Part shown: positions 6,809-60,263 of the stretch, in pieces
Layout of the letters: each line of letters starts with the position of its first letter
How positions within the stretch are numbered: position 1 is the first letter of the stretch
Virus record (IMG/VR): IMGVR_UViG_3300020048_000058
DNA from: a virus
Length of the DNA: 64,000 nucleotides
Strand: one strand, 5' to 3'
The notes under the pieces: generated by a model
Told to the model about the DNA's origin: nothing
The model's input: the letters and a program-made list of their open reading frames with translations, nothing else
Databases searched by the model: none
Position numbers and translations under genes: made by a program

Positions 6809-7264
6809 ATGCCTGATATTAGTACACAGCAAACGGAGGCGGCTGCTTTAATTAAAGAGCAAATAGAGGCCCTGGAGAACCCGGCACAGACACTTCCCTA
6901 CTGGGAGATTTATCGTGCTATCTCAAACGACGGGGGATCTGCGGATGTTTCCACACTTGCCAAAGAAGCAACACTTGGTGCGATCAACGCAAAACTTCCA
7001 TCTTTATCAAGTGGTAGAGTCCCAGTCTCTTTACCAACAATAACAGCCGAGTTAGATTGTAGATTGCTAACAACAAATACAACAATTGCAACTGGTAGTT
7101 ATTTCATTTATTTAAAGGTACTCGTAGGGGATGTAACTATTAATGGATTAACATTTTCATCCGGTGAAAATCTAAACTTTGAAGCCATTAATAATGTTCT
7201 ATACCCCGCCATTGAGTTAGTAATTTCTAATGGTAAATCAGTCCGATTAGTGAGAGGATATTAA
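6809..7264 (+). CDS. hypothetical virion-module protein
   Basis: 151-aa ORF, 1 nt from the tail-fibre gene start. Confidence 0.55.
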   Translation: MPDISTQQTEAAALIKEQIEALENPAQTLPYWEIYRAISNDGGSADVSTLAKEATLGAINAKLPSLSSGRVPVSLPTITAELDCRLLTTNTTIATGSYFIYLKVLVGDVTINGLTFSSGENLNFEAINNVLYPAIELVISNGKSVRLVRGY

Positions 7265-7265
7265 C

Positions 7266-8960
7266 ATGGGAATGTTTTCGGATATTGATTATTCTTTGAT
7301 TGTTTTGCAATTAGAGAAGGCAATGGCTAATGGTGTGGCTACCTTGGATTCAAATACTAAGGTTCCTAAAGCTCAGATTAGTTTAACCGCTTCTGATGTT
7401 GGTGCGATCGCGTCTACTGGCAACGAAGTTTTAACAAGTTTAAACGCCGCGTCTGGCACAATTTCATCTGGGCTTTTACCGTCTTATGTTGATGATGTCC
7501 TGAGTTATACAAACCTTGCCGGGTTCCCAGGTACTGGCGAAGCTGGAAAGATTTACGTTGCAGAAGATTCCAATAAAGTTTACCGATGGTCGGGTTCTGT
7601 TTATGTTGAGATATCGAGTTCTGCTACTGCGGGAGAGGCTTTAAAACTAACCACGCCACGGACAATTGAAGCGACGGGAGATGCAAGTTATTCGGCATCT
7701 TTTGATGGTTCAACCAATGTTACAAGTGCGATAACACTGGCAACGGTCAATAATAATACTGGTTCTTTCGGTAGCGCTAGTTCAATTCCTGCTATTACTG
7801 TCAATGCTAAGGGTCAAGTAACTGCGGTTTCAACTAACAGTATCGGGAATGAATTAATTGCATTACAATCTTTAGCTGACACCCCAGGATTTTTAAAGAA
7901 AACTGGTAACGGGACTTATTCTATTGATGTTAATTCCTATCTTTCATTGGCAGGTGGGACTATCACGGGGGACTTGATTTCAACTAGCGCAACGGCATCA
8001 ACATCAACAACTACAGGGGCTTTAAGGGTCGCTAGTTTAGGGGTTACGGGTGCTATTTTTGCTGGTACTGTTAGTGCCAATTCTTACAATTTGATTCCTA
8101 TTTGGAGAGGAGAGGGAAACATAGGCACAAATACAGTAACAGGAGTTAGTGCGCTTTTGTCCAATACAACAGGAGGGAATTTATCTGCCTTTGGAGTTAA
8201 TTCGCTTCTGTCCAATACCACAGGATGGAATTTATCTGCCTTTGGAGTTAATTCGCTTCTGTCCAATACCACAGGATGGAATTTATCTGCCTTTGGAGCT
8301 TTTTCGCTTCAGTCCAATACAACAGGAGGGAATTTATCTGCTTTTGGAGTTAGTGCCGGACGCTTTATTTCCGATGGCGTTACGGGGCTAACAATATCAA
8401 ATAACTCTTGTTTCTTCGGCATGAACACCAAAGGAACCCAGAACGCAACCAATGAGAACGTATTTGGCTACAACGCCACCGGAAACGGCTCAAACACCGT
8501 AACAATTGGTGATTCAAATATTACCAATACCTACCTAAGAGGTGTGATATCAACTAATTCCACAACACCTTCAACCTCTCCCACCACGGGAGCTAGTGTA
8601 ATTCCTGGGGGTCAAGGGGTTCAGGGAAATCAATATGTTGGGGGTTTTAGTTCTTTGGGTGGGGACGCAAGTCATCCAGGGATTAAGATTAAGGTGCTAA
8701 CGGGAACTACGGCAGCAACACAAGGGGGGGGTGTAGGAATAGCTCATGGAATAGCTGATATAAACAAAATAATTTCAGTTAATCTTTGGGTGAATACAGG
8801 TCAGGGGTTGGGGTTATTTGCACCCCCTAATTATACAAATGGAGCCATCCAATATAATTTTATGCTTTATGGGGGTCATATTTCTGTAGAAAATCACCCA
8901 TCAAACAGTTACAACCTTTTGTCAAAACCAGTCACAATAACAATAATTTACACGGCATAA
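7266..8960 (+). CDS. tail fibre protein
   Basis: N-terminal ATLDSNTKVPKAQISL and FPGTGEAGKIYVAEDSNKVYRWSGSVYVEIS motifs are typical of phage tail fibres. Also contains Gly/Ser/Thr-rich repeats. Confidence 0.75.
   Translation: MGMFSDIDYSLIVLQLEKAMANGVATLDSNTKVPKAQISLTASDVGAIASTGNEVLTSLNAASGTISSGLLPSYVDDVLSYTNLAGFPGTGEAGKIYVAEDSNKVYRWSGSVYVEISSSATAGEALKLTTPRTIEATGDASYSASFDGSTNVTSAITLATVNNNTGSFGSASSIPAITVNAKGQVTAVSTNSIGNELIALQSLADTPGFLKKTGNGTYSIDVNSYLSLAGGTITGDLISTSATASTSTTTGALRVASLGVTGAIFAGTVSANSYNLIPIWRGEGNIGTNTVTGVSALLSNTTGGNLSAFGVNSLLSNTTGWNLSAFGVNSLLSNTTGWNLSAFGAFSLQSNTTGGNLSAFGVSAGRFISDGVTGLTISNNSCFFGMNTKGTQNATNENVFGYNATGNGSNTVTIGDSNITNTYLRGVISTNSTTPSTSPTTGASVIPGGQGVQGNQYVGGFSSLGGDASHPGIKIKVLTGTTAATQGGGVGIAHGIADINKIISVNLWVNTGQGLGLFAPPNYTNGAIQYNFMLYGGHISVENHPSNSYNLLSKPVTITIIYTA
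8160..8363 (+). repeat. 4 x 51-bp in-frame tandem repeat inside the tail fibre gene (SNTTG(G/W)NLSAFG(V/A)(N/F)SL(L/Q))
   Basis: Units start at 8160, 8211, 8262 and 8313. Units 2 and 3 are nearly identical. Confidence 0.9.
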
Positions 8961-12076: not shown

Positions 12077-12143
12077 TATTAATTGTTGGGTTATTTTTAT
12101 TGGTGAAGATATTGGGTTTGTATTATAATATAAATAGACAATG
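12077..12143 (+). promoter_or_regulatory. promoter-like repeat, copy B; TATAAT at 12124..12129 lies only 11 nt before the methylase ATG
   Basis: Near-identical to 10641..10707. Confidence 0.5.
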
Positions 12144-13154
12144 GCAACTAATATTATTATGCTAAATCAAATTATTCATGGGGATTGTTTTGAGGTAATG
12201 AAAGATATTCCTGACAATTCTATTAATTTAATTTGCACCGATCCGCCATATTTTAAAGTTAAAAAAGACAGTTGGGATAGACAATGGGATAAACCCGAAC
12301 ACTTCTTAGAATGGATAGACAGGGCGGCGGAGCAATGGCAAAGAGTCTTAAAACCTAATGGATCATTATATTGTTTTGCCAGTCCCAAAATGTCTGCTAG
12401 GGTTGAGGTTAAGTTGGGAGAAAGGTTAAATATAATTAATCGAGTCACTTGGCAAAAACCACCATTCTCAACTAAGGCGGAAATGTTTGTTAAAGAGGAT
12501 TTAAGGAGATTCTTCCCTACTTCAGAATCAATAATATTCTGTGAACACTACGGAGCAGAAAAAAGGGGGGTTGTTGGGGAGTTTCTAAGAGCTAGGAGAT
12601 TAAAGGCACAAACAACTTGCGATGCCATAGAAAAAACATTAGGATATATAGATAGCAAAGGAAGGGGGTCTCGGCTTTTCTATAGATGGGAGACTGGCGA
12701 CTCCTTGCCGACTAGCGAAGATTTTTGCAACGCACTAAAAGCACTTAGAGATACTCGTCCGCTTGAGGAAATTAAGCGGGAATACGAAGAATTACGCCGT
12801 CCATTCAACGTAACTGCCAATGTTCCCTATACAGATGTTTGGACGTTTCCAACAGTATCAGCTTACAAAGGAAAGCACCCATGCGAGAAGCCATTAGAGC
12901 TAATTAAGCACATTATAAAGTCATCAAGCCGTGAGGGTGATTTAGTTTTAGATCCGTTTTGCGGTAGTGGCACGACGGCAGTAGCCTGCAAAGAATTAAA
13001 TCGTAATTATATTTGTATTGAAAAGGAAAAGGAATATTTTGATATAGCTTGTGATCGCATCTCCCAGCCTAGAGAATATTCAGAAACAGAGTTAGAAATT
13101 ATGGAATTAAATAAACCGGAATTTGAACAATTAAGTTTGTTGGATTTGGTTTGA
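12141..13154 (+). CDS. DNA methyltransferase, N4-C/N6-A beta class
   Basis: Catalytic motif TDPPY near the N-terminus and AdoMet motif DPFCGSGTT near the C-terminus. This circular-permuted order is typical of beta-class amino-methyltransferases. Confidence 0.85.
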   Translation: MATNIIMLNQIIHGDCFEVMKDIPDNSINLICTDPPYFKVKKDSWDRQWDKPEHFLEWIDRAAEQWQRVLKPNGSLYCFASPKMSARVEVKLGERLNIINRVTWQKPPFSTKAEMFVKEDLRRFFPTSESIIFCEHYGAEKRGVVGEFLRARRLKAQTTCDAIEKTLGYIDSKGRGSRLFYRWETGDSLPTSEDFCNALKALRDTRPLEEIKREYEELRRPFNVTANVPYTDVWTFPTVSAYKGKHPCEKPLELIKHIIKSSSREGDLVLDPFCGSGTTAVACKELNRNYICIEKEKEYFDIACDRISQPREYSETELEIMELNKPEFEQLSLLDLV

Positions 13155-16273: not shown

Positions 16274-17161
16274 TTAATCGACACAAGCGCATAGCTTGTT
16301 ATTCTCTCCAGCTTCAATAAGTGCTTTTTCCATCGGGGTTAATGTTCCAACATCTCCCCAAGCGTATTTAGTCCGCCCCAAACCTTTCAAAGACCTTAGA
16401 TCGGCATTTTGTTCCATATCTACTGCCCTTTGATATAGTTCGGGGTGTTTTTCCTTTAGTTCAATAATCTCGCTAATTTTCCGGTTTGGGCAAAAGAAAC
16501 AAGATGATTTTGAAGGAACTGGGAGATTAACGGATCTAATTAGAGCATTGCAGTTTTCTTGGTTTAGACCCCAGTCAATTAAGGGGTATTCTTGTCTGAT
16601 TCCCTCAAAAAGAAAGTCTCTCGTTGATCCGGTTTTGTCTAGCAACCTAGATAATTCTCCCGTATGTATTCCGATTAATTGGCGTGGGGTAGAGGTGATT
16701 TGTTTTTCCTTGCAATAAATTTTTATCCGCTTATGAACTGGTTGAACCTTCCACTTCATTGAACAAGTTGAATATCCATAGGCTTTGCTGGGTAACATAT
16801 TTTTAGTTAAGCATTCTTCTTCAAGATTTGAGTAATCAAACTTTTGTCGTGATGTTCCCATCTGTTTATATTTCACCCATTCAATCCCAGGGAATCCTTC
16901 TACTAAAAGCCAATTAGAAAAAGTCTCTACCCATTCGTAGGTTTCCGGTAGCTCCGCCCCCGTGTCAGCAAACAAGATTAAATCGGGTTTAATCCCTTTC
17001 AGAATCATTGCTATCAACATGGCGGTGCTATTGGTTCCCCCACCATAGGAAACAACGATAGGAGAGTTTGGATCGGGTGCGGGTCTATTCTTTAAAATCC
17101 AAATAGGGTCTTTAGCCTGAACATCAACATGATCACCAAATAAATCCAATTGAGTTGTCAT
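16274..17161 (-). CDS. PAPS reductase-like / PP-loop ATP-pyrophosphatase family protein
   Basis: VVSYGGGTNSTAML is a PP-loop variant. There are C-terminal Cys pairs (SSCFFCPN, LCACVD). Confidence 0.7.
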   Translation of the reverse strand: MTTQLDLFGDHVDVQAKDPIWILKNRPAPDPNSPIVVSYGGGTNSTAMLIAMILKGIKPDLILFADTGAELPETYEWVETFSNWLLVEGFPGIEWVKYKQMGTSRQKFDYSNLEEECLTKNMLPSKAYGYSTCSMKWKVQPVHKRIKIYCKEKQITSTPRQLIGIHTGELSRLLDKTGSTRDFLFEGIRQEYPLIDWGLNQENCNALIRSVNLPVPSKSSCFFCPNRKISEIIELKEKHPELYQRAVDMEQNADLRSLKGLGRTKYAWGDVGTLTPMEKALIEAGENNKLCACVD

Positions 17162-18649: not shown

Positions 18650-19369
18650 TTAGGGAGCAAGCCGAGCTTTCCCTAATCTATTTTTTTCATACCAAGCTGA
18701 AATCTCAGGAACCCAATCCTGAGTATGGGCCCACATCATTTCAGAGAGTTTTTGAATCTCTAACTGGGCATCTTTTTTAAATCTTAAATCGAGAAAATGT
18801 AACAGTGAACGCAGGTTACAAGACATAACAAAATGCTGTCTGAAATCGAACGGGATTAAACCTCTAGCGTGTTCTTCTGACATTCCATTTAAGATATTAT
18901 TTTTATACATTTCACAAGCATCTAAACAATATCTTAAATGGAAATCTCTTTCAAAATGAGAATATTTATATTTTTTCCCTTGGCGGTCAACATATTCACC
19001 AACGGGTCTTAGGTAAAATACATCCTCAATATCACGTTTACCATCAACAACATCAATTATTCTTTGACCTGAATAACGCATCGACTCAACGCTAAAACTC
19101 ATTATCCTGTGTCGCGTTGCTTGCTGCATTACACTGTGAGGGAAATAGCCAACATTAAATACTATGTAAGCTGTTTCGGCACAACTCCAATGCCCTCTAT
19201 CACCTGCTAATAATCTTTTAACTGCTATCTCGCCACACTCTTTTTCTGGGGGGATTTTATCAATGCCTTCAAACACATAATTCTCGCTATAACATTGATG
19301 CAATGCCAGATAAATCATCTGTTGGGGATTAGCTGTTTTTGATAAAACCTCAACCTTGAATTTGTCCAT
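18650..19369 (-). CDS. thyX: flavin-dependent thymidylate synthase ThyX
   Basis: ThyX signature RHRIMSFSVESMRYS (RHRxxSxxxxSxRY). The start is taken at MDKFKVEV. Confidence 0.85.
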   Translation of the reverse strand: MDKFKVEVLSKTANPQQMIYLALHQCYSENYVFEGIDKIPPEKECGEIAVKRLLAGDRGHWSCAETAYIVFNVGYFPHSVMQQATRHRIMSFSVESMRYSGQRIIDVVDGKRDIEDVFYLRPVGEYVDRQGKKYKYSHFERDFHLRYCLDACEMYKNNILNGMSEEHARGLIPFDFRQHFVMSCNLRSLLHFLDLRFKKDAQLEIQKLSEMMWAHTQDWVPEISAWYEKNRLGKARLAP

Positions 19370-19416
19370 TAGCCTCCTCTTTTGTGCATCTTTAGTCAAG
19401 AAACAATGCAATCGTT

Positions 19417-20184
19417 ATTTCAATCCATAAAATAGGCAATCGTCTATTGCGGGATGGATACTTAAATCATCATCAACTAAACAGGGATGTTTCAATCCAT
19501 AAAATAGGCAATCGTCTATTGCGGGTTTAAACGGGGAACCCAATTGTTTTTAGTCAGGATGTTTCAATCCATAAAATAGGCAATCGTCTATTGCGGGTTT
19601 TGCTAAGTCGGAATGGTAATTAGCATCAAAATCGTTTCAATCCATAAAATAGGCAATCGTCTATTGCGGGTTCCCTTTACTTTTAAACTGATAATAGCTA
19701 TCAGGGTTTCAATCCATAAAATAGGCAATCGTCTATTGCGGGAAAAAGCATACGATACAGCTATAAAAGAAGGTTATCTATTAGTTTCAATCCATAAAAT
19801 AGGCAATCGTCTATTGCGGGAAAACCCCTGCATAGGCTTTTCTACCATAGAACGGTTTCAATCCATAAAATAGGCAATCGTCTATTGCGAGATCAAAGCC
19901 ATTAAGAATAGGATAAAAAACATCCAAGTTTCAATCCATAAAATAGGCAATCGTCTATTGCGGGTTTGGGTCTATCTGTTGGGTTACGACCGGGGGATTA
20001 GTGTTTCAATCCATAAAATAGGCAATCGTCTATTGCGGGTTCCGTTTACTCTGGGAACCATTCAAGGCATCATTGTTTCAATCCATAAAATAGGCAATCG
20101 TCTATTGCGGGTTTATAACCATGTTCTGGGGATGATGCCAGAAGAAGGTTTCAATCCATAAAATAGGCAATCGTCTATTGCGGG
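19417..20184. CRISPR. CRISPR array: 11 x 37-bp repeats GTTTCAATCCATAAAATAGGCAATCGTCTATTGCGGG, with 10 spacers of 34-41 bp
   Basis: Repeat starts are 19417, 19489, 19561, 19634, 19706, 19784, 19855, 19928, 20003, 20075 and 20148. Repeat 1 has A for G at position 1. Repeat 7 ends GCGAG. All spacers are unique. Confidence 0.97.
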
Positions 20185-20203
20185 AGCTTAATCCGCAATT
20201 GTT

Positions 20204-21877
20204 TCAGGCGTTTCTATCGAAATCACCTAAGCTCATTCGATTTATTATAGCATGAGTTTTGGCGGTTTCGGCAACTAAAAAATCGTGAACCCCGTTTTTA
20301 AACAAATCATCTGGAATTGTTATGGTGTCTGACTTTTTGGTTTTTTTCTTGGTTGCCTTTTTAGAAGAGCTAGGGGTTGCCGAATTTTTATTAATCAGGA
20401 ATTTATACCAGAAATTATCGGACAATTCCACACCTTGATTGATTGCCATTTGAGCTAAACCTTTTAACTTAATGTTCTGTCCTGAGTTGACATCACGAGC
20501 AACGGTATAACCACAATTAGAGCATTTGTGAGTGCGTTGAGATAGCTTTTTCTTCTCTTGATGTCCACACTTCGCACAACATAAAGTAGTTCCCCAATTA
20601 TCAACCCGAATCACTAATTTTCCGTGTTCCTTTGCTTTGGTTTCTAATAAATCAATAGCTTGACCAATAGCTACGTCACTCCCTGTTCTGTTACTTCCTC
20701 GTTTGCGTTTTTGATTATTTTTATCGTAGATAACTGTACCATTTTCGGCAACCACTGGATTTCCTTCTGTGTCTAATTTTGCCTTGGCTTTAGCTTTTCG
20801 GTAGACGTTGGCGGGTTTGTAATCCTCAACAAAAATCACGTCAAACCAATTGATTAAATTGGTAGAATGCCAGTGATTGAATGATCGGCGGTGACGGGCG
20901 ATTTTCTCATGAAGTTTAGCAATTTTATTATTGAGTTTCTCCCAATTCTTAGTTTTCCCCTCGTTCATTCGATACTTGCGAGATAATTGTTGCTGCATTT
21001 TCCTTAGACGTTTTAGCGATCGCTTTAAAGGTTGTGCAGCCTCAATAGTATGACCATTATCCAATGCCATAACAAACTGATGTCCGGGGTCAATTCCACA
21101 ACATAACCCTGTCTTCTTGGCTTGCTTGACAGGGACGGACGCAGTTAATTGTACATACCACCCCGACGCTTTTTTGCAAATTTTCATCGGGTTAAAATCG
21201 CAACCATACCACCGTTTATCAAATCCAATTACCTCGATATAACCCAATTTTGGAATATTGATCTTACTGTCCTTAACACCTAGATCCTTAGCGTTGTAAT
21301 GGATTAAAGTCATTACCTTATCTTTAGCTGTTTTGAAACGTGGACGGCTGTGGCGACCCGCTAGAAATCCCTCCCAAGCCTTTGATAGTTCATGCGCTAC
21401 ACCTTGAATGAATTTTGCCGGGCAATCGGTGAAATTAACTTTTCGCTCCTCACCTCTAACTAAATAAGTCACAATCCGATCCTTGTGGTGCTGATGTCCA
21501 AATACCTTTAGGAACCCGTATAGTACCGACTTTTTAGAATCCAGTGAGTCAATAATAGGGCTATTTTCATCAATGGCGACGGGATGGATTAACCCCCTTT
21601 TCTTCTCGACTCGCTCAATCCCCATCTTCCAATCTGGGATCTCAATTCGTACCCATTGCTTGAGCTTGCGGTCGTATCGTTGCAGGGGAGTTGCAGGGAC
21701 GTTAGACTTTGACAGTTTATCGTAAGGGTTCCACTCGTTAAATTCCTCTATCAGTCCTAATGAGCGATTCCAAACCCACTTACAAACTAGCATCCAATCT
21801 TCTAGGGTTCGCTCTTGTTCTGAAGATAGAATGAGTTTAAACTCCTTTGTTCGCACATTTTCGCTAAAATTAGACAT
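20204..21877 (-). CDS. cas12: TnpB-like RuvC nuclease adjacent to the CRISPR array: candidate compact type V (Cas12-class) effector, 557 aa
   Basis: N-terminal TnpB-type RTKEFKLILSSEQERTLEDWMLVCKWVWNRSL. RuvC-I is CCGIDPGHQF, RuvC-II is VIFVEDYKP and RuvC-III is ARDVNSGQNI. Zn ribbon CCAKCGH...HKCSNCGY. The array begins 19 bp after the stop codon. Confidence 0.8.
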   Translation of the reverse strand: MSNFSENVRTKEFKLILSSEQERTLEDWMLVCKWVWNRSLGLIEEFNEWNPYDKLSKSNVPATPLQRYDRKLKQWVRIEIPDWKMGIERVEKKRGLIHPVAIDENSPIIDSLDSKKSVLYGFLKVFGHQHHKDRIVTYLVRGEERKVNFTDCPAKFIQGVAHELSKAWEGFLAGRHSRPRFKTAKDKVMTLIHYNAKDLGVKDSKINIPKLGYIEVIGFDKRWYGCDFNPMKICKKASGWYVQLTASVPVKQAKKTGLCCGIDPGHQFVMALDNGHTIEAAQPLKRSLKRLRKMQQQLSRKYRMNEGKTKNWEKLNNKIAKLHEKIARHRRSFNHWHSTNLINWFDVIFVEDYKPANVYRKAKAKAKLDTEGNPVVAENGTVIYDKNNQKRKRGSNRTGSDVAIGQAIDLLETKAKEHGKLVIRVDNWGTTLCCAKCGHQEKKKLSQRTHKCSNCGYTVARDVNSGQNIKLKGLAQMAINQGVELSDNFWYKFLINKNSATPSSSKKATKKKTKKSDTITIPDDLFKNGVHDFLVAETAKTHAIINRMSLGDFDRNA

Positions 21878-21905
21878 ACCTATTTAAGAAATTGAAACGT
21901 ATGTA

Positions 21906-21934
21906 TTGACATTTCCATTATATACAACTATAGT
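21906..21934 (+). promoter_or_regulatory. sigma70-type promoter TTGACA-17 nt-TATAGT, firing away from the cas12-like gene
   Basis: -35 at 21906..21911 and -10 at 21929..21934, read directly. Confidence 0.6.
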
Positions 21935-21940
21935 GGAATC

Positions 21941-22087
21941 ACCGACGTTTAGATCGGCAAGCCAAAAGCTGCCCTTGGAGCCGAAAGGATTAACGATTAG
22001 GCGATGAAGAGGGAATATTCTCTAGCCAGATATGGTTAGCAATTTTAAAAATAGGTAATCAACTTAAAGGGGCTCCGGCCCCTTTTT
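21941..22087 (+). ncRNA. candidate tracrRNA / small non-coding RNA of about 147 nt, bounded by a promoter and a terminator
   Basis: No ORF longer than 10 codons. AAAATAGGTAATC (22048..22060) can pair over 13 bp (one G-U) with minus-sense repeat positions 13-25 (GAUUGCCUAUUUU). It ends in GGGGCUCCGGCCCCUUUUU. Confidence 0.4.
22069..22087 (+). terminator. intrinsic terminator GGGGCTCCGGCCCC followed by TTTTT (probably bidirectional; it also follows minus-strand gene 22100..22534)
   Basis: GC-rich 5-6 bp stem, a T5 run on plus, TTTAAGTT on minus. Confidence 0.65.
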
Positions 22088-22099
22088 AGTAGACTCCAT

Positions 22100-22534
22100 C
22101 TATTTTTGAAACCGAAATAAAGAGTCAGCCTTGACAATCTCAATCTCAACACAAAGGGCTTTCAATCTCTCAAAAGCCACCACCGGATCGGCTTCAAAAT
22201 CAACTGGACTAGATCCGGTCATCGGAGCGTCGGACACCGCCCCCAATGGCTCAAAGGCACGGGATTTGTTATTCCAAAAAAACACTCTGTTAATATGTCG
22301 CTCTATTGCTTCCGGTGTTTCGAGAAAACAATAGATAAGTCCTGCGACAATAGCCTGCCTGACATCGGTTCTGAATCGCCTTTTATCGAGTTTAATTGTC
22401 CATAATTCAGATAGAAATTCCTCGTCGGTTTCTACATCATACCAAAGGCACTCACAGGAAAATGTATGTAGGTCGTTGTCGTGAATCTTTGGGGTAGTTT
22501 GAAAGCCTTTTTTAGCGAGTTTAGTTGTTTTCAT
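22100..22534 (-). CDS. hypothetical protein
   Basis: 144-aa ORF. Its start overlaps the stop of the upstream methylase gene. Confidence 0.6.
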   Translation of the reverse strand: MKTTKLAKKGFQTTPKIHDNDLHTFSCECLWYDVETDEEFLSELWTIKLDKRRFRTDVRQAIVAGLIYCFLETPEAIERHINRVFFWNNKSRAFEPLGAVSDAPMTGSSPVDFEADPVVAFERLKALCVEIEIVKADSLFRFQK

Positions 22535-23564
22535 GGTTAATTGATTTTAAGATTGCCAGACCTAATTCTTTAGCCAACAACGGGGGGACGGCATTCCCGA
22601 TGATTTGCTGAGTCAGGGTTTTTGATTCTGAGAATTTGTAATCATCGGGAAAAGTTTGCAGCCGTGCCGTCGCCCGTTGGTTGATTCGTTTAATTTGACT
22701 TCCCTGTACGATGTCCGCCCAATGGGTAGAGACACCCGCCATAGCTCTAATTGTTGGACAAGGCTTGTTTTGTGGAGTCGGTAAAATATTCTTGATACAG
22801 GCTCCCGCACGGGGGATTAACAAAACGGGTGAATGGGAATTACAGTGACCCGATACGATAGTAAAACTTGGATCGTTTGACTCCCGAACTGTAGCCTGTC
22901 TAATGAGTTGTTTACCAATATCAATTAAGGCTTTTTCTGGCAAATAACCCAGTTCATTCAGTCGTTTAATCTGCCAGTCTGCAAGTTCGCAGTCCTGCAT
23001 TTCTGGGATTAAATCACTAATGGCTTGATACCATCCCTTTTTAGGTTTTGATTCGGGGAAATAGGGGAGGGGTTCTGAATTTTTAACTGCCCACATAATC
23101 AACCGTTTCCGATTTTGGGGAACCCCATAATCCGCCGCGTCTAAAATTAACCAATGATAGCGATATCCGTTACGGATCAATGATTGTAGGATTTTCTCAA
23201 AAGTTGGTGATTTTGAATATCCTGGGACGTTTTCAAGAATCACCCATCGAGGGGATAATATGGCAATATAATCACAGCAATAAAGCCCCGCATCTTTATC
23301 TTTATGGTCAGGAATATCACCCCGCCGTGCGTTTGAATATTGTTGACAGGGGGGACTCATCCAAAGTAGATCAACCCGCTCCATGAGATGAGTGCGAATT
23401 TCGCCAACACAAGAGTTGAATACTTTGGTATTGGGAAAATTTAATCGTGCTACTTCTGCAATTTTAGGATCTCGCTCAATCCCCCAAATGGACTTAAAAC
23501 CTGCGGCTTCTAACCCCTTATCTGCACCGCCTCCGCCCATGAATAATGTTGCGAATGTTGGCAT
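22521..23564 (-). CDS. dcm: DNA (cytosine-5)-methyltransferase
   Basis: Motif I FMGGGGADKG, motif IV SPPCQQYS, motif VI ILENVPG, motif VIII QNRKRL and motif X GNAVPP. Confidence 0.9.
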   Translation of the reverse strand: MPTFATLFMGGGGADKGLEAAGFKSIWGIERDPKIAEVARLNFPNTKVFNSCVGEIRTHLMERVDLLWMSPPCQQYSNARRGDIPDHKDKDAGLYCCDYIAILSPRWVILENVPGYSKSPTFEKILQSLIRNGYRYHWLILDAADYGVPQNRKRLIMWAVKNSEPLPYFPESKPKKGWYQAISDLIPEMQDCELADWQIKRLNELGYLPEKALIDIGKQLIRQATVRESNDPSFTIVSGHCNSHSPVLLIPRAGACIKNILPTPQNKPCPTIRAMAGVSTHWADIVQGSQIKRINQRATARLQTFPDDYKFSESKTLTQQIIGNAVPPLLAKELGLAILKSINHENN

Positions 23565-40000: not shown

Positions 40001-41479
40001 ATGAAAAGTATTGAACAACCTGGCTTCGTTTACATCCTACACGCCGAGGGTACTAATCGCTTTAAGATCGGATATTCGGCAGATCCGGAAAAAAGGTGTC
40101 AAAGTGTTAGTCAACAGTCACCATTTTCCATTGTATTAATTCACAGCTACCCATCAGACAATGCTTACAGGGATGAACAAAAATTACACAATATGTTCAG
40201 TAACAGAAGGGTACATGGAGAATGGTTTTGTTTTGATTCAATTGAACACATAAAAGTATTAATTGATGAGTTTTTTGAGATTAAGTCATTAAACAAATCA
40301 ACAAAACCAATCCCAATTTCATCGCGTCACCTTTATTCAGGAGACGAAGTAAACGATCAATCGCAACGACCTAAACCCAAGAAACGGGAAAAACCTGAAT
40401 ATCCCGATCTTTCAGATGAACAAATTAGAATTGTTAAATTTGTCGAAAAACAGGGGGGAGAATGCAAACTAAACGACATCCTCAAGGGGATGACAATTAC
40501 AGTTAATGGGGAGCGATGGACTAAAGAAAAATATACTCACGCAATCCATTCTATTAAAAACAAGGGATACTTAAATCTGAGGGTTGAGCGTGAAACAATC
40601 TGGATTAGTTTGCTGCGATTTGAACAAGTTGACAAATCCAGTCAACAAGAATCACCGGAAAACAACAGCAATCCTGATGATATTAACCGCCGTAAATTTG
40701 AAGCTATTACCAGCTATTGCCAGAGGAAAGGCGAAACAACTGTAAGAAAAATACAGCAAGGAAAGTTATTATCTGATGAATATAAGCTCGATTCAAACTT
40801 TATTAAATATGCTCTGAATATGCTCTCAGAACAGGGATTAATTACCCTTGACAAGTCATCAGAGGATTGGATTATAGAATCTTTTGCAGGTAATCCTTTG
40901 TCCGCGTCTTTCCCTGATTTTGATATCTGGAAACTAAGGCAGAAGCCAAAAAAGAGTGATAATCCCAAGGATAAATTTATGCAGATACTGACATTCTGTG
41001 AGGGAATAGGATCAACATCGGTGCGAGAGGTTCAGCGTTCATCTGTTGGATATAATTTATCATCGGATGTTATCAAATATGCTTTTGAATGGCTGGAAAA
41101 TAATGGCTATGGGACAGTTAAAACTGAACAAACCGGGGGGACTACCAGGGTATCGTTTACACCAGATTCTTGTGATAGTAAACTAGAGAATAAACCGGAA
41201 TTAAACCAGATTATTAACGGGGTTGAATTGTACCCAGAATGGTTGAGTATTTATGAATTAGCTAAACAAGACGGTTCAATTTTAGCCCGTGAAGTTTATC
41301 GCTCTGCATTAGGTCAAAGGCTTAAATTAAACAAAGCAACAACCCGTCAGATATTCGACAAATTAACAGAAGCCAAACTAGGAACTGTTACAGAAGTTAG
41401 TGGTAGCTGTATTTTTACCCCTGATTTATCCTATAAGCAAAGCAAAACACAAGCCCATGAATTATCCCGAAGTAGTTGA
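40001..41479 (+). CDS. T5orf172/GIY-YIG-like domain protein with about 4 winged-helix-like repeats
   Basis: GFVYILHAEGTNRFKIGYS...HGEWFCF at the N-terminus. Reiterated ...VR(K/E)(I/V)Q...(I/F)KYA...L...G segments follow. Confidence 0.55.
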   Translation: MKSIEQPGFVYILHAEGTNRFKIGYSADPEKRCQSVSQQSPFSIVLIHSYPSDNAYRDEQKLHNMFSNRRVHGEWFCFDSIEHIKVLIDEFFEIKSLNKSTKPIPISSRHLYSGDEVNDQSQRPKPKKREKPEYPDLSDEQIRIVKFVEKQGGECKLNDILKGMTITVNGERWTKEKYTHAIHSIKNKGYLNLRVERETIWISLLRFEQVDKSSQQESPENNSNPDDINRRKFEAITSYCQRKGETTVRKIQQGKLLSDEYKLDSNFIKYALNMLSEQGLITLDKSSEDWIIESFAGNPLSASFPDFDIWKLRQKPKKSDNPKDKFMQILTFCEGIGSTSVREVQRSSVGYNLSSDVIKYAFEWLENNGYGTVKTEQTGGTTRVSFTPDSCDSKLENKPELNQIINGVELYPEWLSIYELAKQDGSILAREVYRSALGQRLKLNKATTRQIFDKLTEAKLGTVTEVSGSCIFTPDLSYKQSKTQAHELSRSS

Positions 41480-55554: not shown

Positions 55555-56283
55555 ATGGTTGATTATGGTGTTCTGTCTATGTTAGCATCTAATTGTCCAT
55601 TTCGGAACGACTCGGAAGGAGTTCGGAATACTTTGAACAAACCTGATAATACAAGACTAGACCTTTTGATCAAAGCTGTCGAAATTTTAGTCGAGAATCC
55701 ATACTTGTCCAACGTAAAAGTTGCAAAGTTAGTGGGGTGTGATGAGGGCTCTATCCGGCGATGGAAGAAACTGGATATATGGAAAGAAGAAGAGCAAAAA
55801 ATATTAAAAATAAGAATGGAGGTAGCAGGAAATATATTATCAAATATCGTAAAAGGTAATCAGAGTGAGCAAAGAAACCAAAGTCATCAGAATACTCAAA
55901 GATATCAGAATACTCAAGGTGTTCGGGAGCAAGACGAGGATGTTAAAGATTTTGATCGGACTGATGTGTTTGAGACAAAGAGACGGATTCAGTATCAAGC
56001 CAACCTAGAGAAACAGCAAGATGATTTAAAGTTGTTCCTAGAGGCGATTAAGGCAACGGGAGTCCAATCGCTAAAGTTAGCAAATAAAACTTATACCGAG
56101 TTAGGGAAAATGGATAACCCTGTCAAGGCTTGCCAGCAGGGGACAAAGGCAGGGGTTCATTTTCACGTCCGTACGGGGATGGACGCAGTAAAGGAAGTTG
56201 ACCGACTCATTGAACGAATCTATCAAATAGATCGGGTTCTTGAGTATATGGAACAACAAATTGGGACAGATGATTATGATTAA
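55555..56283 (+). CDS. HTH DNA-binding protein (function unknown)
   Basis: LSNVKVAKLVGCDEGSIRRWKK helix-turn-helix. Confidence 0.5.
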   Translation: MVDYGVLSMLASNCPFRNDSEGVRNTLNKPDNTRLDLLIKAVEILVENPYLSNVKVAKLVGCDEGSIRRWKKLDIWKEEEQKILKIRMEVAGNILSNIVKGNQSEQRNQSHQNTQRYQNTQGVREQDEDVKDFDRTDVFETKRRIQYQANLEKQQDDLKLFLEAIKATGVQSLKLANKTYTELGKMDNPVKACQQGTKAGVHFHVRTGMDAVKEVDRLIERIYQIDRVLEYMEQQIGTDDYD

Positions 56284-59293: not shown

Positions 59294-59668
59294 ATGGTAG
59301 CTCAAATCACGACCGCGATCACGACTGAAATCATCTCAACCTACGTTTCAACCTTTGACGGCCTCCAAATCGACACGATTCAAATGACTTACCCGGACGG
59401 CTCGGTTGAAATCCGTTATGGATGGATGGAAGAAGACTTCTACACAGGTGAAACAACCTACTATATCCGAACAAAATCCGGCGCCGTTCTGAATAGCAAC
59501 TGGAAGACCACCCGTAATAACAAGTGGTTGGTTAGTTACAAATCAATTAAACTCACCGCTAAACAAACTGAAATTATCAATCATAATTCTGCCCTCGAAG
59601 TGTTAGCAAGTCCTGAGAATTACAGTCACGCCGAGTACCTCAAAGCAAAGGCTGATCTGGGATTCTAA
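59294..59668 (+). CDS. hypothetical protein
   Basis: 124-aa ORF. Confidence 0.55.
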   Translation: MVAQITTAITTEIISTYVSTFDGLQIDTIQMTYPDGSVEIRYGWMEEDFYTGETTYYIRTKSGAVLNSNWKTTRNNKWLVSYKSIKLTAKQTEIINHNSALEVLASPENYSHAEYLKAKADLGF

Positions 59669-59735: not shown

Positions 59736-60263
59736 ATGCAATCACTTCAAAGCCCTACAACTGCCACTAATACAGCCGTCCTACCTAACACACCTCGCGA
59801 TTTACGGATAGCACTAGCCTCCGGTGAAACGTTAGGAATTAACCGACCTTTCCTTGATATCCAACGCGATTTATACCGCAAAGTCCCCGATAGTTATTAT
59901 GCTTTCAAAAGTAAAGGGGGAACTCAAATTATCTACCTCTCATGGGAATTATTAAGCTGCTGCATGGATTATATTACCCCCGGATGGGAGAAGTCCATCA
60001 GTCTAAACCAGATTGGGGAGCGGGTAACGGTTGAATGTACCGTAACCATCCATAGTTCCGACGGGTCATTCAAACGTACAGCTACAGGGAGCGACACTCT
60101 ACTCGACGAGGGATATGGGGGGCCTGTAGTTGATGCAGAAAGTCAGGCATTTCGCCGGGCGCTCGCCAACTTTGGATTCTGTAGTTATCTCTGGGATAAA
60201 GAAATCAGTAATGCCCTGATAAAACGGCTCAAAGGTCAAACCCCGCCCACTTTTTGGGGTTAG
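59736..60263 (+). CDS. Rad52/Sak-type single-strand annealing protein
   Basis: IIYLSWELL...VTVECTVTIH...AESQAFRRALANFGFCSYLW resembles the Rad52/Sak (DUF1071-like) core. Confidence 0.55.
   Translation: MQSLQSPTTATNTAVLPNTPRDLRIALASGETLGINRPFLDIQRDLYRKVPDSYYAFKSKGGTQIIYLSWELLSCCMDYITPGWEKSISLNQIGERVTVECTVTIHSSDGSFKRTATGSDTLLDEGYGGPVVDAESQAFRRALANFGFCSYLWDKEISNALIKRLKGQTPPTFWG

Follow-up and report, generated by a model that had tools for sequence, protein, structure and literature searches.

A phage-borne type V-U2 CRISPR locus in a PaV-LD-like Planktothrix phage with spacers that match mainly plasmids of the host

A phage-borne CRISPR locus with a type V-U2 effector has already been described in the cyanophage vB_AphaS-CL131 (Sulcius et al. 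2019, PMC6293099). For that locus a single weak spacer match, to a cyanobacterial primase pseudogene, was reported, and direction, protospacer adjacent motif (PAM) and function were left open (PMC6293099); the subtype itself was still without an assigned PAM in a 2024 review (PMC11641405). Here we analyse a related arrangement in a stretch of 64,000 nucleotides of viral DNA (IMG/VR record IMGVR_UViG_3300020048_000058, the whole of which we call the window), where an array of ten spacers lies beside the gene of a V-U2 effector. A first-pass annotation had flagged one of these spacers, since it resembles a diverged allele of a Rad52/Sak-like recombinase gene of the same phage, and had taken this to point to phage-versus-phage targeting. 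According to our analysis, the flagged spacer belongs to a functional-looking phage-borne V-U2 locus, the main prey of which is probably a family of Planktothrix agardhii plasmids. The phage-borne V-U2 system as such is already known; new here are the resolved direction, the flank motif and the predominantly anti-plasmid target set. The argument turns on the following features.

19417..20184, minus strand: CRISPR array with 11 repeats, each 37 nt long, and 10 spacers whose length is 34-41 nt
19671..19705, minus strand: the flagged spacer, counted as spacer 4 along the plus strand and as the 7th from the leader along the minus strand
20204..21877, minus strand: type V-U2 (C2c8/Cas12u2) TnpB-derived effector, 557 aa
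59736..60263, plus strand: Rad52/Sak-like single-strand annealing protein gene, 175 aa, accessory
59883..59920, plus strand: diverged resident copy of the protospacer, matching at 27 of 35 positions over 59886-59920, with GTC before it at 59883-59885

CL131 is likewise a PaV-LD-related, siphovirus-like cyanophage in which a TnpB-like V-U2 effector has an array of about ten spacers behind it on its own strand, with no other cas genes. It differs in having an unrelated repeat and an effector that lacks the 85-residue C-terminal extension of the window protein, in place of which CL131 has about 255 nt of non-coding DNA before the array; in the window lineage, moreover, direction, GTN flank and plasmid target spectrum could be resolved in silico. 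Among other virus-borne systems, the lytic Vibrio phage ICP1 reportedly carries complete class 1 CRISPR-Cas machinery of type I-F, including adaptation genes, which is directed against the PLE satellite (the work of Seed et al. 2013). In ICP1 as in the window system, the spacers of the phage point to a small mobile element residing in the host, and not to the chromosome of that host or to the phage. The window system differs from ICP1 in being a single-effector V-U2 system for which no adaptation genes were found, and in having as targets plasmids of unproven relation to the phage, whereas PLE is a proven phage parasite. In our analysis of the targets, the anti-plasmid set recalls the contest between ICP1 and PLE more than it does rivalry among phages. 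The virus-borne arrays of huge phages with Cas12j (Al-Shayeb et al. 2020) and the mini-arrays of archaeal viruses (Medvedeva et al. 2019) are said to be aimed at related viruses. Common to these and to the window are spacers that match relatives and carriers that would be spared by sequence divergence, whereas in the window lineage only 2 of the 34 spacers that could be mapped touch phage DNA, both of them in a gene shared with plasmids.

The effector matches the PADLOC Cas12u2 profile over its full length (E=2.6e-107, 358 bits, profile positions 2-443 of 445). Its best NCBIfam match is NF038192 (C2c8), at 302 bits and thus below the curated cut-off of 350, so that the protein is best regarded as a divergent V-U2 member; in Pfam it matches OrfB_IS605 and Cas12f1-like_TNB. 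The RuvC triad, D262 (in GIDPG), E350 and D461, is intact, as is a zinc finger of the form CxxC...CxxC made up of C433, C436, C451 and C454, and the columns of both are conserved in an alignment with the CL131 effector, to which the window protein is 34% identical. Together with an adjacent, co-oriented array and no adaptation module found, this is the composition of a V-U2 locus. The lysine-rich C-terminal extension of 85 residues, which ends 18 nt before the first repeat, is kept in the 13 other loci with a full-length effector open reading frame (ORF), and two more keep the C-terminal end. From the conserved 5'-(R)GTN flank at 34 natural targets, described below, we would predict that the effector carries out PAM-dependent targeting of DNA guided by CRISPR RNA (crRNA); this targeting would entail DNA cleavage.

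The repeat of the array reads GTTTCAATCCATAAAATAGGCAATCGTCTATTGCGGG, or CCCGCAATAGACGATTGCCTATTTTATGGATTGAAAC in the sense of the minus strand, and was found in 15 IMG/VR contigs and in one contig of a metagenome-assembled genome (MAG). The 16 sister arrays hold 59 distinct spacers, which differ at the leader end and are common at the trailer end, and in 14 of the 17 array-holding loci (13 with a full-length gene) the effector is linked to the array; L015 has no effector, and the remaining loci are cut by the contig end. Four lines of sequence evidence lead us to conclude that the array is read on the minus strand: it is co-oriented with the effector; its last repeat is degenerate; trailer-end spacers are common to the 16 arrays and effector-proximal ones differ among them; and it is in this orientation that a target flank is conserved, namely the 5' one (GTN) only. 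The leader is at the effector end, the array starting 18 nt past the effector stop codon, and the flagged spacer reads CCTGATAGCTATTATCAGTTTAAAAGTAAAGGGAA in the crRNA sense, that is, as the reverse complement of the plus strand. Folding energy leaves the strand undecided, with the plus-strand version of the repeat folding better, an advantage that we consider outweighed by the evidence from polarity and flanks. Two further features belong to the ends of the array.

19417..19453, minus strand: degenerate terminal (oldest) repeat, ending in ...GAAAT instead of ...GAAAC and adjoining thyX
20244..20252, minus strand: candidate extended -10 promoter element TGCTATAAT, lying within the 3' coding end of the effector gene, about 60 nt upstream of the first repeat

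The ...GAAAT variant is the last repeat in 11 of the 15 other sister arrays and is absent in L002, L015 and L019. The candidate -10 element was not flagged by a scan for consensus promoters because 19 nt separate it from TTGCCG. An inverted repeat, ATTGCGG...CCGCAAT, in the minus-strand region 20186-20460 reaches across into the first repeat, and a leader, promoter or guide-scaffold RNA may lie concealed in this region; an Rfam scan of 18.5-22.6 kb returned no known RNA family. The arrays L003, L005, L006 and L010 share a conserved mini-spacer of 16 nt, AGAGATATTCTTGATG (unit S11), with a variant repeat (...GACAATTGCC...) flanking it, an arrangement that recalls the truncated repeat-spacer units seen in Cas12k systems. 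The array repeat occurs in a single "genome" record, L019 (JBIPMB010000293.1), a 3.4-kb contig in a Gammaproteobacteria MAG from Lake Mendota; since the phage effector and array lie on this contig, its binning is almost certainly an error, and we rejected the idea that a host chromosome carries the same repeat, for which this evidently misbinned contig was the sole match.

To identify targets, spacers were mapped at an ungapped identity of at least 75%, for which 58 of the 59 were long enough. Matches were obtained for 34 of the 58, as against none of 290 shuffled spacers, and for 32 of these 34 every match lies in P. agardhii plasmids or in a circular plasmid-like element of 16.6 kb. The plasmid targets lie in p4, p1, NIES-204 plasmid3 and plasmid-like contigs, and include the replication genes CyRepA1 (on p1) and DUF3987. 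The other two spacers both fall in the annealing-protein gene that phages and plasmids share, and none of the 34 matches a phage-only gene. What the mapped spacers match is thus other mobile elements (plasmids, the plasmid-like element, a sister phage), the carrier itself holding no perfect match (its best is 27/35). The first-pass annotation had proposed a search with all ten spacers of the window: seven of them (1, 2, 4, 5, 7, 8 and 10 in minus-strand numbering) map to the plasmid-like family, and a sister-phage match exists for the flagged spacer only. Exact scans with spacer 5' ends were negative in IMG/VR for window spacers 1, 2 and 3, as they were in GTDB genomes for window spacers 3, 6 and 9. 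Several loci are sampled repeatedly by the arrays L002, L006, L007, L008 and L010 (S03/S20/S40, S24/S30, S10/S25, S43/S59), with overlapping spacers, opposite-strand spacers and allelic variants of one target site, which suggests acquisition hot spots or primed uptake.

For the flagged spacer, a degenerate scan of viral contigs returned a perfect match (35/35, preceded by 5'-GTT) in the 87-kb contig of a PaV-LD-like sister phage (IMGVR_UViG_3300044644_001981; L001/L026). This sister phage has the same effector and array at 95% identity (L004), and its copy of the annealing gene sits in a context syntenic with 51-60 kb of the window. The expectation that the protospacer would lie in the orthologous gene of a related phage is therefore borne out. 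An equally perfect match, again with 5'-GTT, lies in the plasmid-like contig L044, which stems from the metagenome that also yielded the array-bearing phage contigs L003 and L013, and to which window spacers 1, 2, 4 and 10 (minus-strand numbering) also map. The concern that no database sequence might match the spacer better than the resident gene is removed by both of these 35/35 matches. A second spacer, from a sister array, bears on the same gene.

59887..59923, minus strand: site of L008 spacer 1 on the window's own allele, matching at 30 of 34 positions, with 5'-GTT (59921-59923, reverse-complemented)

This spacer, the leader-proximal one of array L008, shares with the window allele a perfect PAM-proximal stretch of 17 nt. 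The sister array independently acquired the same site of about 35 bp on the opposite strand, and the window allele is its best match among everything fetched. Three central mismatches coincide with an Ala codon (GCT) that is unusual to the window, all 42 homologues having Gln, Gly, Ser or Lys there.

One could read these matches as dedicated phage-versus-phage warfare, in which the flagged spacer was taken from a co-infecting sister phage and serves to exclude it, the plasmid matches being secondary. The perfect, GTT-flanked protospacer does lie in a syntenic gene of a contig that has the same CRISPR-Cas locus; the perfectly matching sister-phage allele groups with phage alleles (88-90% nucleotide identity) and not with plasmid alleles (77-81%); and L008 spacer 1 finds its best match in the window's own allele. 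Against this, no spacer apart from the two in the shared gene touches any phage sequence: all 59 spacers, concatenated, had no match in 50,697 phage records, those outside the annealing gene matched neither PaV-LD nor the remainder of the window nor those parts of sister phages that were fetched, and the flagged spacer is just as perfect in L044, where four other window spacers map. We therefore regard this explanation as unlikely, if still to be taken seriously. Of the original phage-versus-phage proposal, the perfect protospacer in a sister phage stands, while such targeting as the chief purpose of the array does not fit the 32 of 34 mapped spacers that are plasmid-only.

The flanks of the targets were counted at the best match of each of the 34 mapped spacers. 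On the 5' side, G is found at position -3 in 28 and T at position -2 in 28, with GT together in 23 (binomial p=1.5e-22); a purine occupies position -4 in 26, and position -1 is T in 15, A in 9, G in 7 and C in 3. No conservation was seen in the 3' target flank of the same 34. The inspection of flanks for a conserved PAM, which the first-pass annotation had suggested, thus leads to 5'-(R)GTN, which as judged from these alignments is the first in-silico PAM for V-U2, and the position of which fits a type V effector. GTN is also the PAM of type I-D systems (PMC5896167), and Cas12k has a 5'-GTN PAM as well (table in PMC11641405). The likeness to these two types extends to a repeat ending in ...TTGAAA(G/C), and in the crRNA sense the phage repeat aligns with the P. 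agardhii I-D repeat of PMC9398003 (CCCGCA...TATTTTA...ATTGAAA) with a score of 28, which none of 2000 shuffles reached. The differences are that type I-D relies on a multi-subunit Cascade and that Cas12k is nuclease-dead and transposon-associated, whereas the window effector keeps its RuvC triad and resides in a phage.

Because of the repeat likeness, the shared GTN and the fact that no adaptation genes were found in the window, we infer that the spacers were loaded by the type I-D Cas1-Cas2-Cas4 of the host, and the GTN motif may in part reflect this host adaptation step and not a requirement of the effector itself. A stronger version would have the host type I-D system service the array altogether, with host Cas1-Cas2-Cas4 loading it, host Cascade perhaps using its crRNAs, and GTN reflecting I-D. 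The three observations just named are all in keeping with this, but effector and array are in tight linkage at 14 of 17 loci, the effector has its catalytic residues intact, CL131 couples a V-U2 effector with an unrelated repeat, and the stem of the phage repeat is unlike that of the host repeat. Since, moreover, the adaptation half is compatible with a V-U2 locus that preys on plasmids, we consider full servicing by the host improbable.

We next turn to the match within the carrier genome. The reverse complement of the flagged spacer aligns without gaps to 59886-59920 at 27 of 35 positions, in frame 0 of ORF 59736-60263, and in translation PDSYYQFKSKG in the spacer faces PDSYYAFKSKG in the resident gene, with 10 of 11 residues the same. 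Re-alignment thus reproduces what the first-pass annotation had described, including the flanks AAGTC and GAGTT. None of 1500 shuffles of the flagged spacer reached 27 matches (maximum 25), and the best self-match of the other nine spacers, on either strand, is 24. The differences fall at three separate third-codon positions, over the entire Q/A codon and at the final two bases; these final two, which the first-pass annotation placed in the partial terminal codon, are in fact non-synonymous (Asn/Gly, the true targets having GGG AAC and the resident gene GGG GGA). The in-frame pattern, the shuffles and the perfect protospacers elsewhere bear out the annotation's view that the match is true homology, and chance is excluded. 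The notion of a chance similarity, or of an inert relic array, has nothing in its favour beyond the adaptation genes that were not found, and is further contradicted by spacer content that is diversified and polarised over 16 arrays; we give it practically no credence.

Counted from the PAM side, the resident site is mismatched at spacer positions 3, 9, 16-18, 21, 34 and 35. With 27/35 identity, PAM-proximal mismatches at 3 and 9 and a GTC flank, it is not the near-perfect, PAM-bearing match that self-targeting would call for, and because of the seed sensitivity of characterised Cas12 and TnpB enzymes we expect the resident allele to be spared by its eight mismatches, two of which lie in the nine PAM-proximal bases. 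Two interpretations of this site were tried and rejected. The mismatches are not a mark of CRISPR escape, their density being equal to the gene-wide allelic divergence of about 19%: over the whole gene, identity between the spacer-matching and resident alleles is 80.7%, and at least 8 mismatches are present in 53% of the windows of 35 nt. Neither can loss of the PAM be claimed, since GTC conforms to GTN and is also the flank of one 36/37 target. One could also speculate that the locus serves self-regulation, a partly matching crRNA binding the phage's own annealing gene and tuning its expression without cutting. In CL131 the V-U2 locus has been suggested to act in regulation (PMC6293099), and the resident site retains GT at -3/-2; yet the eight mismatches include positions 3 and 9 by the PAM, their density is simply that of the gene, perfect targets exist elsewhere and the RuvC triad is intact, which makes this idea very improbable.

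The gene in which the flagged spacer finds its targets has no match in PaV-LD and is common to sister phages and P. agardhii plasmids, being 87% identical to a gene on plasmid p4. We found 42 homologues of its product at 81-92% identity, mostly from metagenomes and Planktothrix MAGs. Its assignment to the Rad52/Sak family (PF04098, PF06378) calls for some care: the protein aligns with Pfam Rad52_Rad22 (PF04098) nearly over the full length of the profile (5-142 of 153, E=0.012), with a score of 16.0 bits that falls short of the cut-off of 20.3. BLASTP relates it to a Picosynechococcus DUF1071 protein (3e-18) and to a Rad52/Rad22 protein of Synechocystis pSYSX (2e-16), both plasmid proteins that pass PF04098 (20.8 and 24.0 bits), one of them nearly reaching SSAP_Sak (20.0 bits), and a motif, YG.P..(D/N)AES.AFRR..A.FG, is common to the window protein and to the cyanobacterial plasmid proteins that pass the Pfam threshold. 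An AlphaFold2 model from a 27-sequence alignment had a mean predicted local distance difference test score of 55.9, with an order of secondary structure elements compatible with the Rad52-type beta-beta-beta-alpha arrangement, and is too poor to confirm the fold; a Foldseek search of this poor model against the PDB gave no meaningful match, a hidden Markov model search against PDB sequences gave none, and a PHROGs search returned no family. The label of a Rad52/Sak-like annealing protein, proposed in the first-pass annotation, thus appears reasonable by transitive homology. The gene forms a two-gene module with an upstream neighbour.

59294..59668, plus strand: ORF of unknown function, 124 aa, partner of the annealing gene

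The product of this ORF has no Pfam or PHROG match and is 79% identical in amino acid sequence to its counterpart in the plasmid-like element and 57-60% to those in L026 and p4. The pair is present in sister phages, in p4 and in the 16.6-kb element, from which the annealing gene would appear to be part of a module shared by phages and plasmids.

The reading that we consider probable, a V-U2 locus preying mainly on plasmids, can then be put as follows. Effector and array would be transcribed on the minus strand; the crRNAs would consist of a repeat-derived 5' part and a 3' spacer; and these would guide the RuvC nuclease to double-stranded DNA bearing 5'-(R)GTN. The flagged spacer would be derived from the annealing gene of a plasmid backbone that the phage lineage also carries, and since this gene is shared, perfect targets would exist in the plasmid-like element and in the sister phage alike, with the carrier's anciently diverged allele (27/35) being spared. 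A number of points weigh against this reading. The sampling of targets is biased, the plasmid-like loci having been fetched through the annealing gene and a plasmid database, and the 87-kb sister phage was readable in parts only; 24 of the 58 spacers, including three of the ten in the window, are unmapped and could be phage-derived. The grouping of the perfectly matching allele with phage alleles means that the flagged spacer could itself have come from a phage. Pfam scans of 20 window ORFs, and NCBIfam scans of 10 of these, revealed no Cas1, Cas2 or Cas4, the remaining ORFs being mostly PaV-LD homologues; no anti-repeat of at least 9 nt was found near the locus, nor a trans-activating CRISPR RNA; and V-U2 is biochemically uncharacterised (PMC11641405).

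The window itself is a PaV-LD-like Planktothrix phage, with syntenic PaV-LD homologues for 55 of its 75 ORFs, a terminase that is 98% identical and a DnaB-methylase block that is 82% identical at the DNA level, and these figures place the CRISPR locus inside a phage genome. The locus is flanked by thyX (18650-19411) on one side and by an ORF011 homologue, a methylase and DnaB on the other, the latter flank being homologous to PaV-LD ORF007-011. PaV-LD is without the locus and has in its place ORF012-019, including an integrase; our search of the literature brought up no description of CRISPR loci in PaV-LD-like phages. A stretch of 252 nt in an intergenic gap elsewhere in the PaV-LD genome (68831-69055; L018) is 85% identical to window 21810-22061, which comprises the region upstream of the effector and its first 23 codons, and may be a deletion remnant or a mobile promoter cassette. 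The window further encodes, besides thyX, three DNA methyltransferases (12141-13154, N6/N4; 22521-23564, C5; 44034-44795, N6/Eco57I-like), which together are consistent with a heavy investment against host restriction. A second stretch common to phage and plasmids lies at 40001-41479 (plus strand), a 492-aa ORF with an N-terminus of the GIY-YIG/T5orf172 type: over its first 285 nt it shares about 82% identity with P. agardhii plasmids, and the C-terminal part of its protein resembles the end of a 457-aa protein of the plasmid-like element.

This plasmid-like element is circular or tandem, of about 16,560 bp (L048, 21,186 bp, the first 200 nt of which recur at 16,560). Most of its genes are common to p4 and NIES-204 plasmid3, and only four have window homologues. 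Its ORF 7072-7608 (minus strand) encodes a 178-aa helix-turn-helix protein with weak matches to several small-terminase PHROGs, homologous to window ORF 55555-56283 and to a PaV-LD region, which is possibly a satellite-like trait. The P. agardhii plasmids that spacers match in their replication backbones encode anti-phage systems: p1 (L040, 9.9-26.3 kb) bears a DISARM system together with non-ribosomal peptide synthetase and polyketide synthase clusters, and p4 (L039, 6.4-13.9 and 42-50 kb) bears type I restriction-modification, MazF, PIN toxins and a DUF1156 methylase module. As a tentative and rather doubtful extension, one might suppose that the 16.6-kb elements and plasmids are antagonists of PaV-LD-like phages, either as carriers of DISARM and restriction or as satellite-like parasites, the latter idea resting on the weakly small-terminase-like protein and the recombination module shared with the phage. 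The array would then be a counter-weapon that acquires its spacers by hijacking host I-D adaptation through repeat mimicry and GTN.

V-U2 is one of the last type V subtypes without an assigned PAM, guide direction and natural targets, and this lineage offers all three in silico, with the resident 27/35 allele as a built-in negative control beside defined natural targets. For the biology of the host, a major toxic bloom-former, the target set suggests that its phages attack host plasmids, some of which carry DISARM or restriction systems, in a three-way conflict between phage, plasmid and host and not a simple rivalry between phages, one in which a spacer placed in a shared recombination gene would also expose sister phages.

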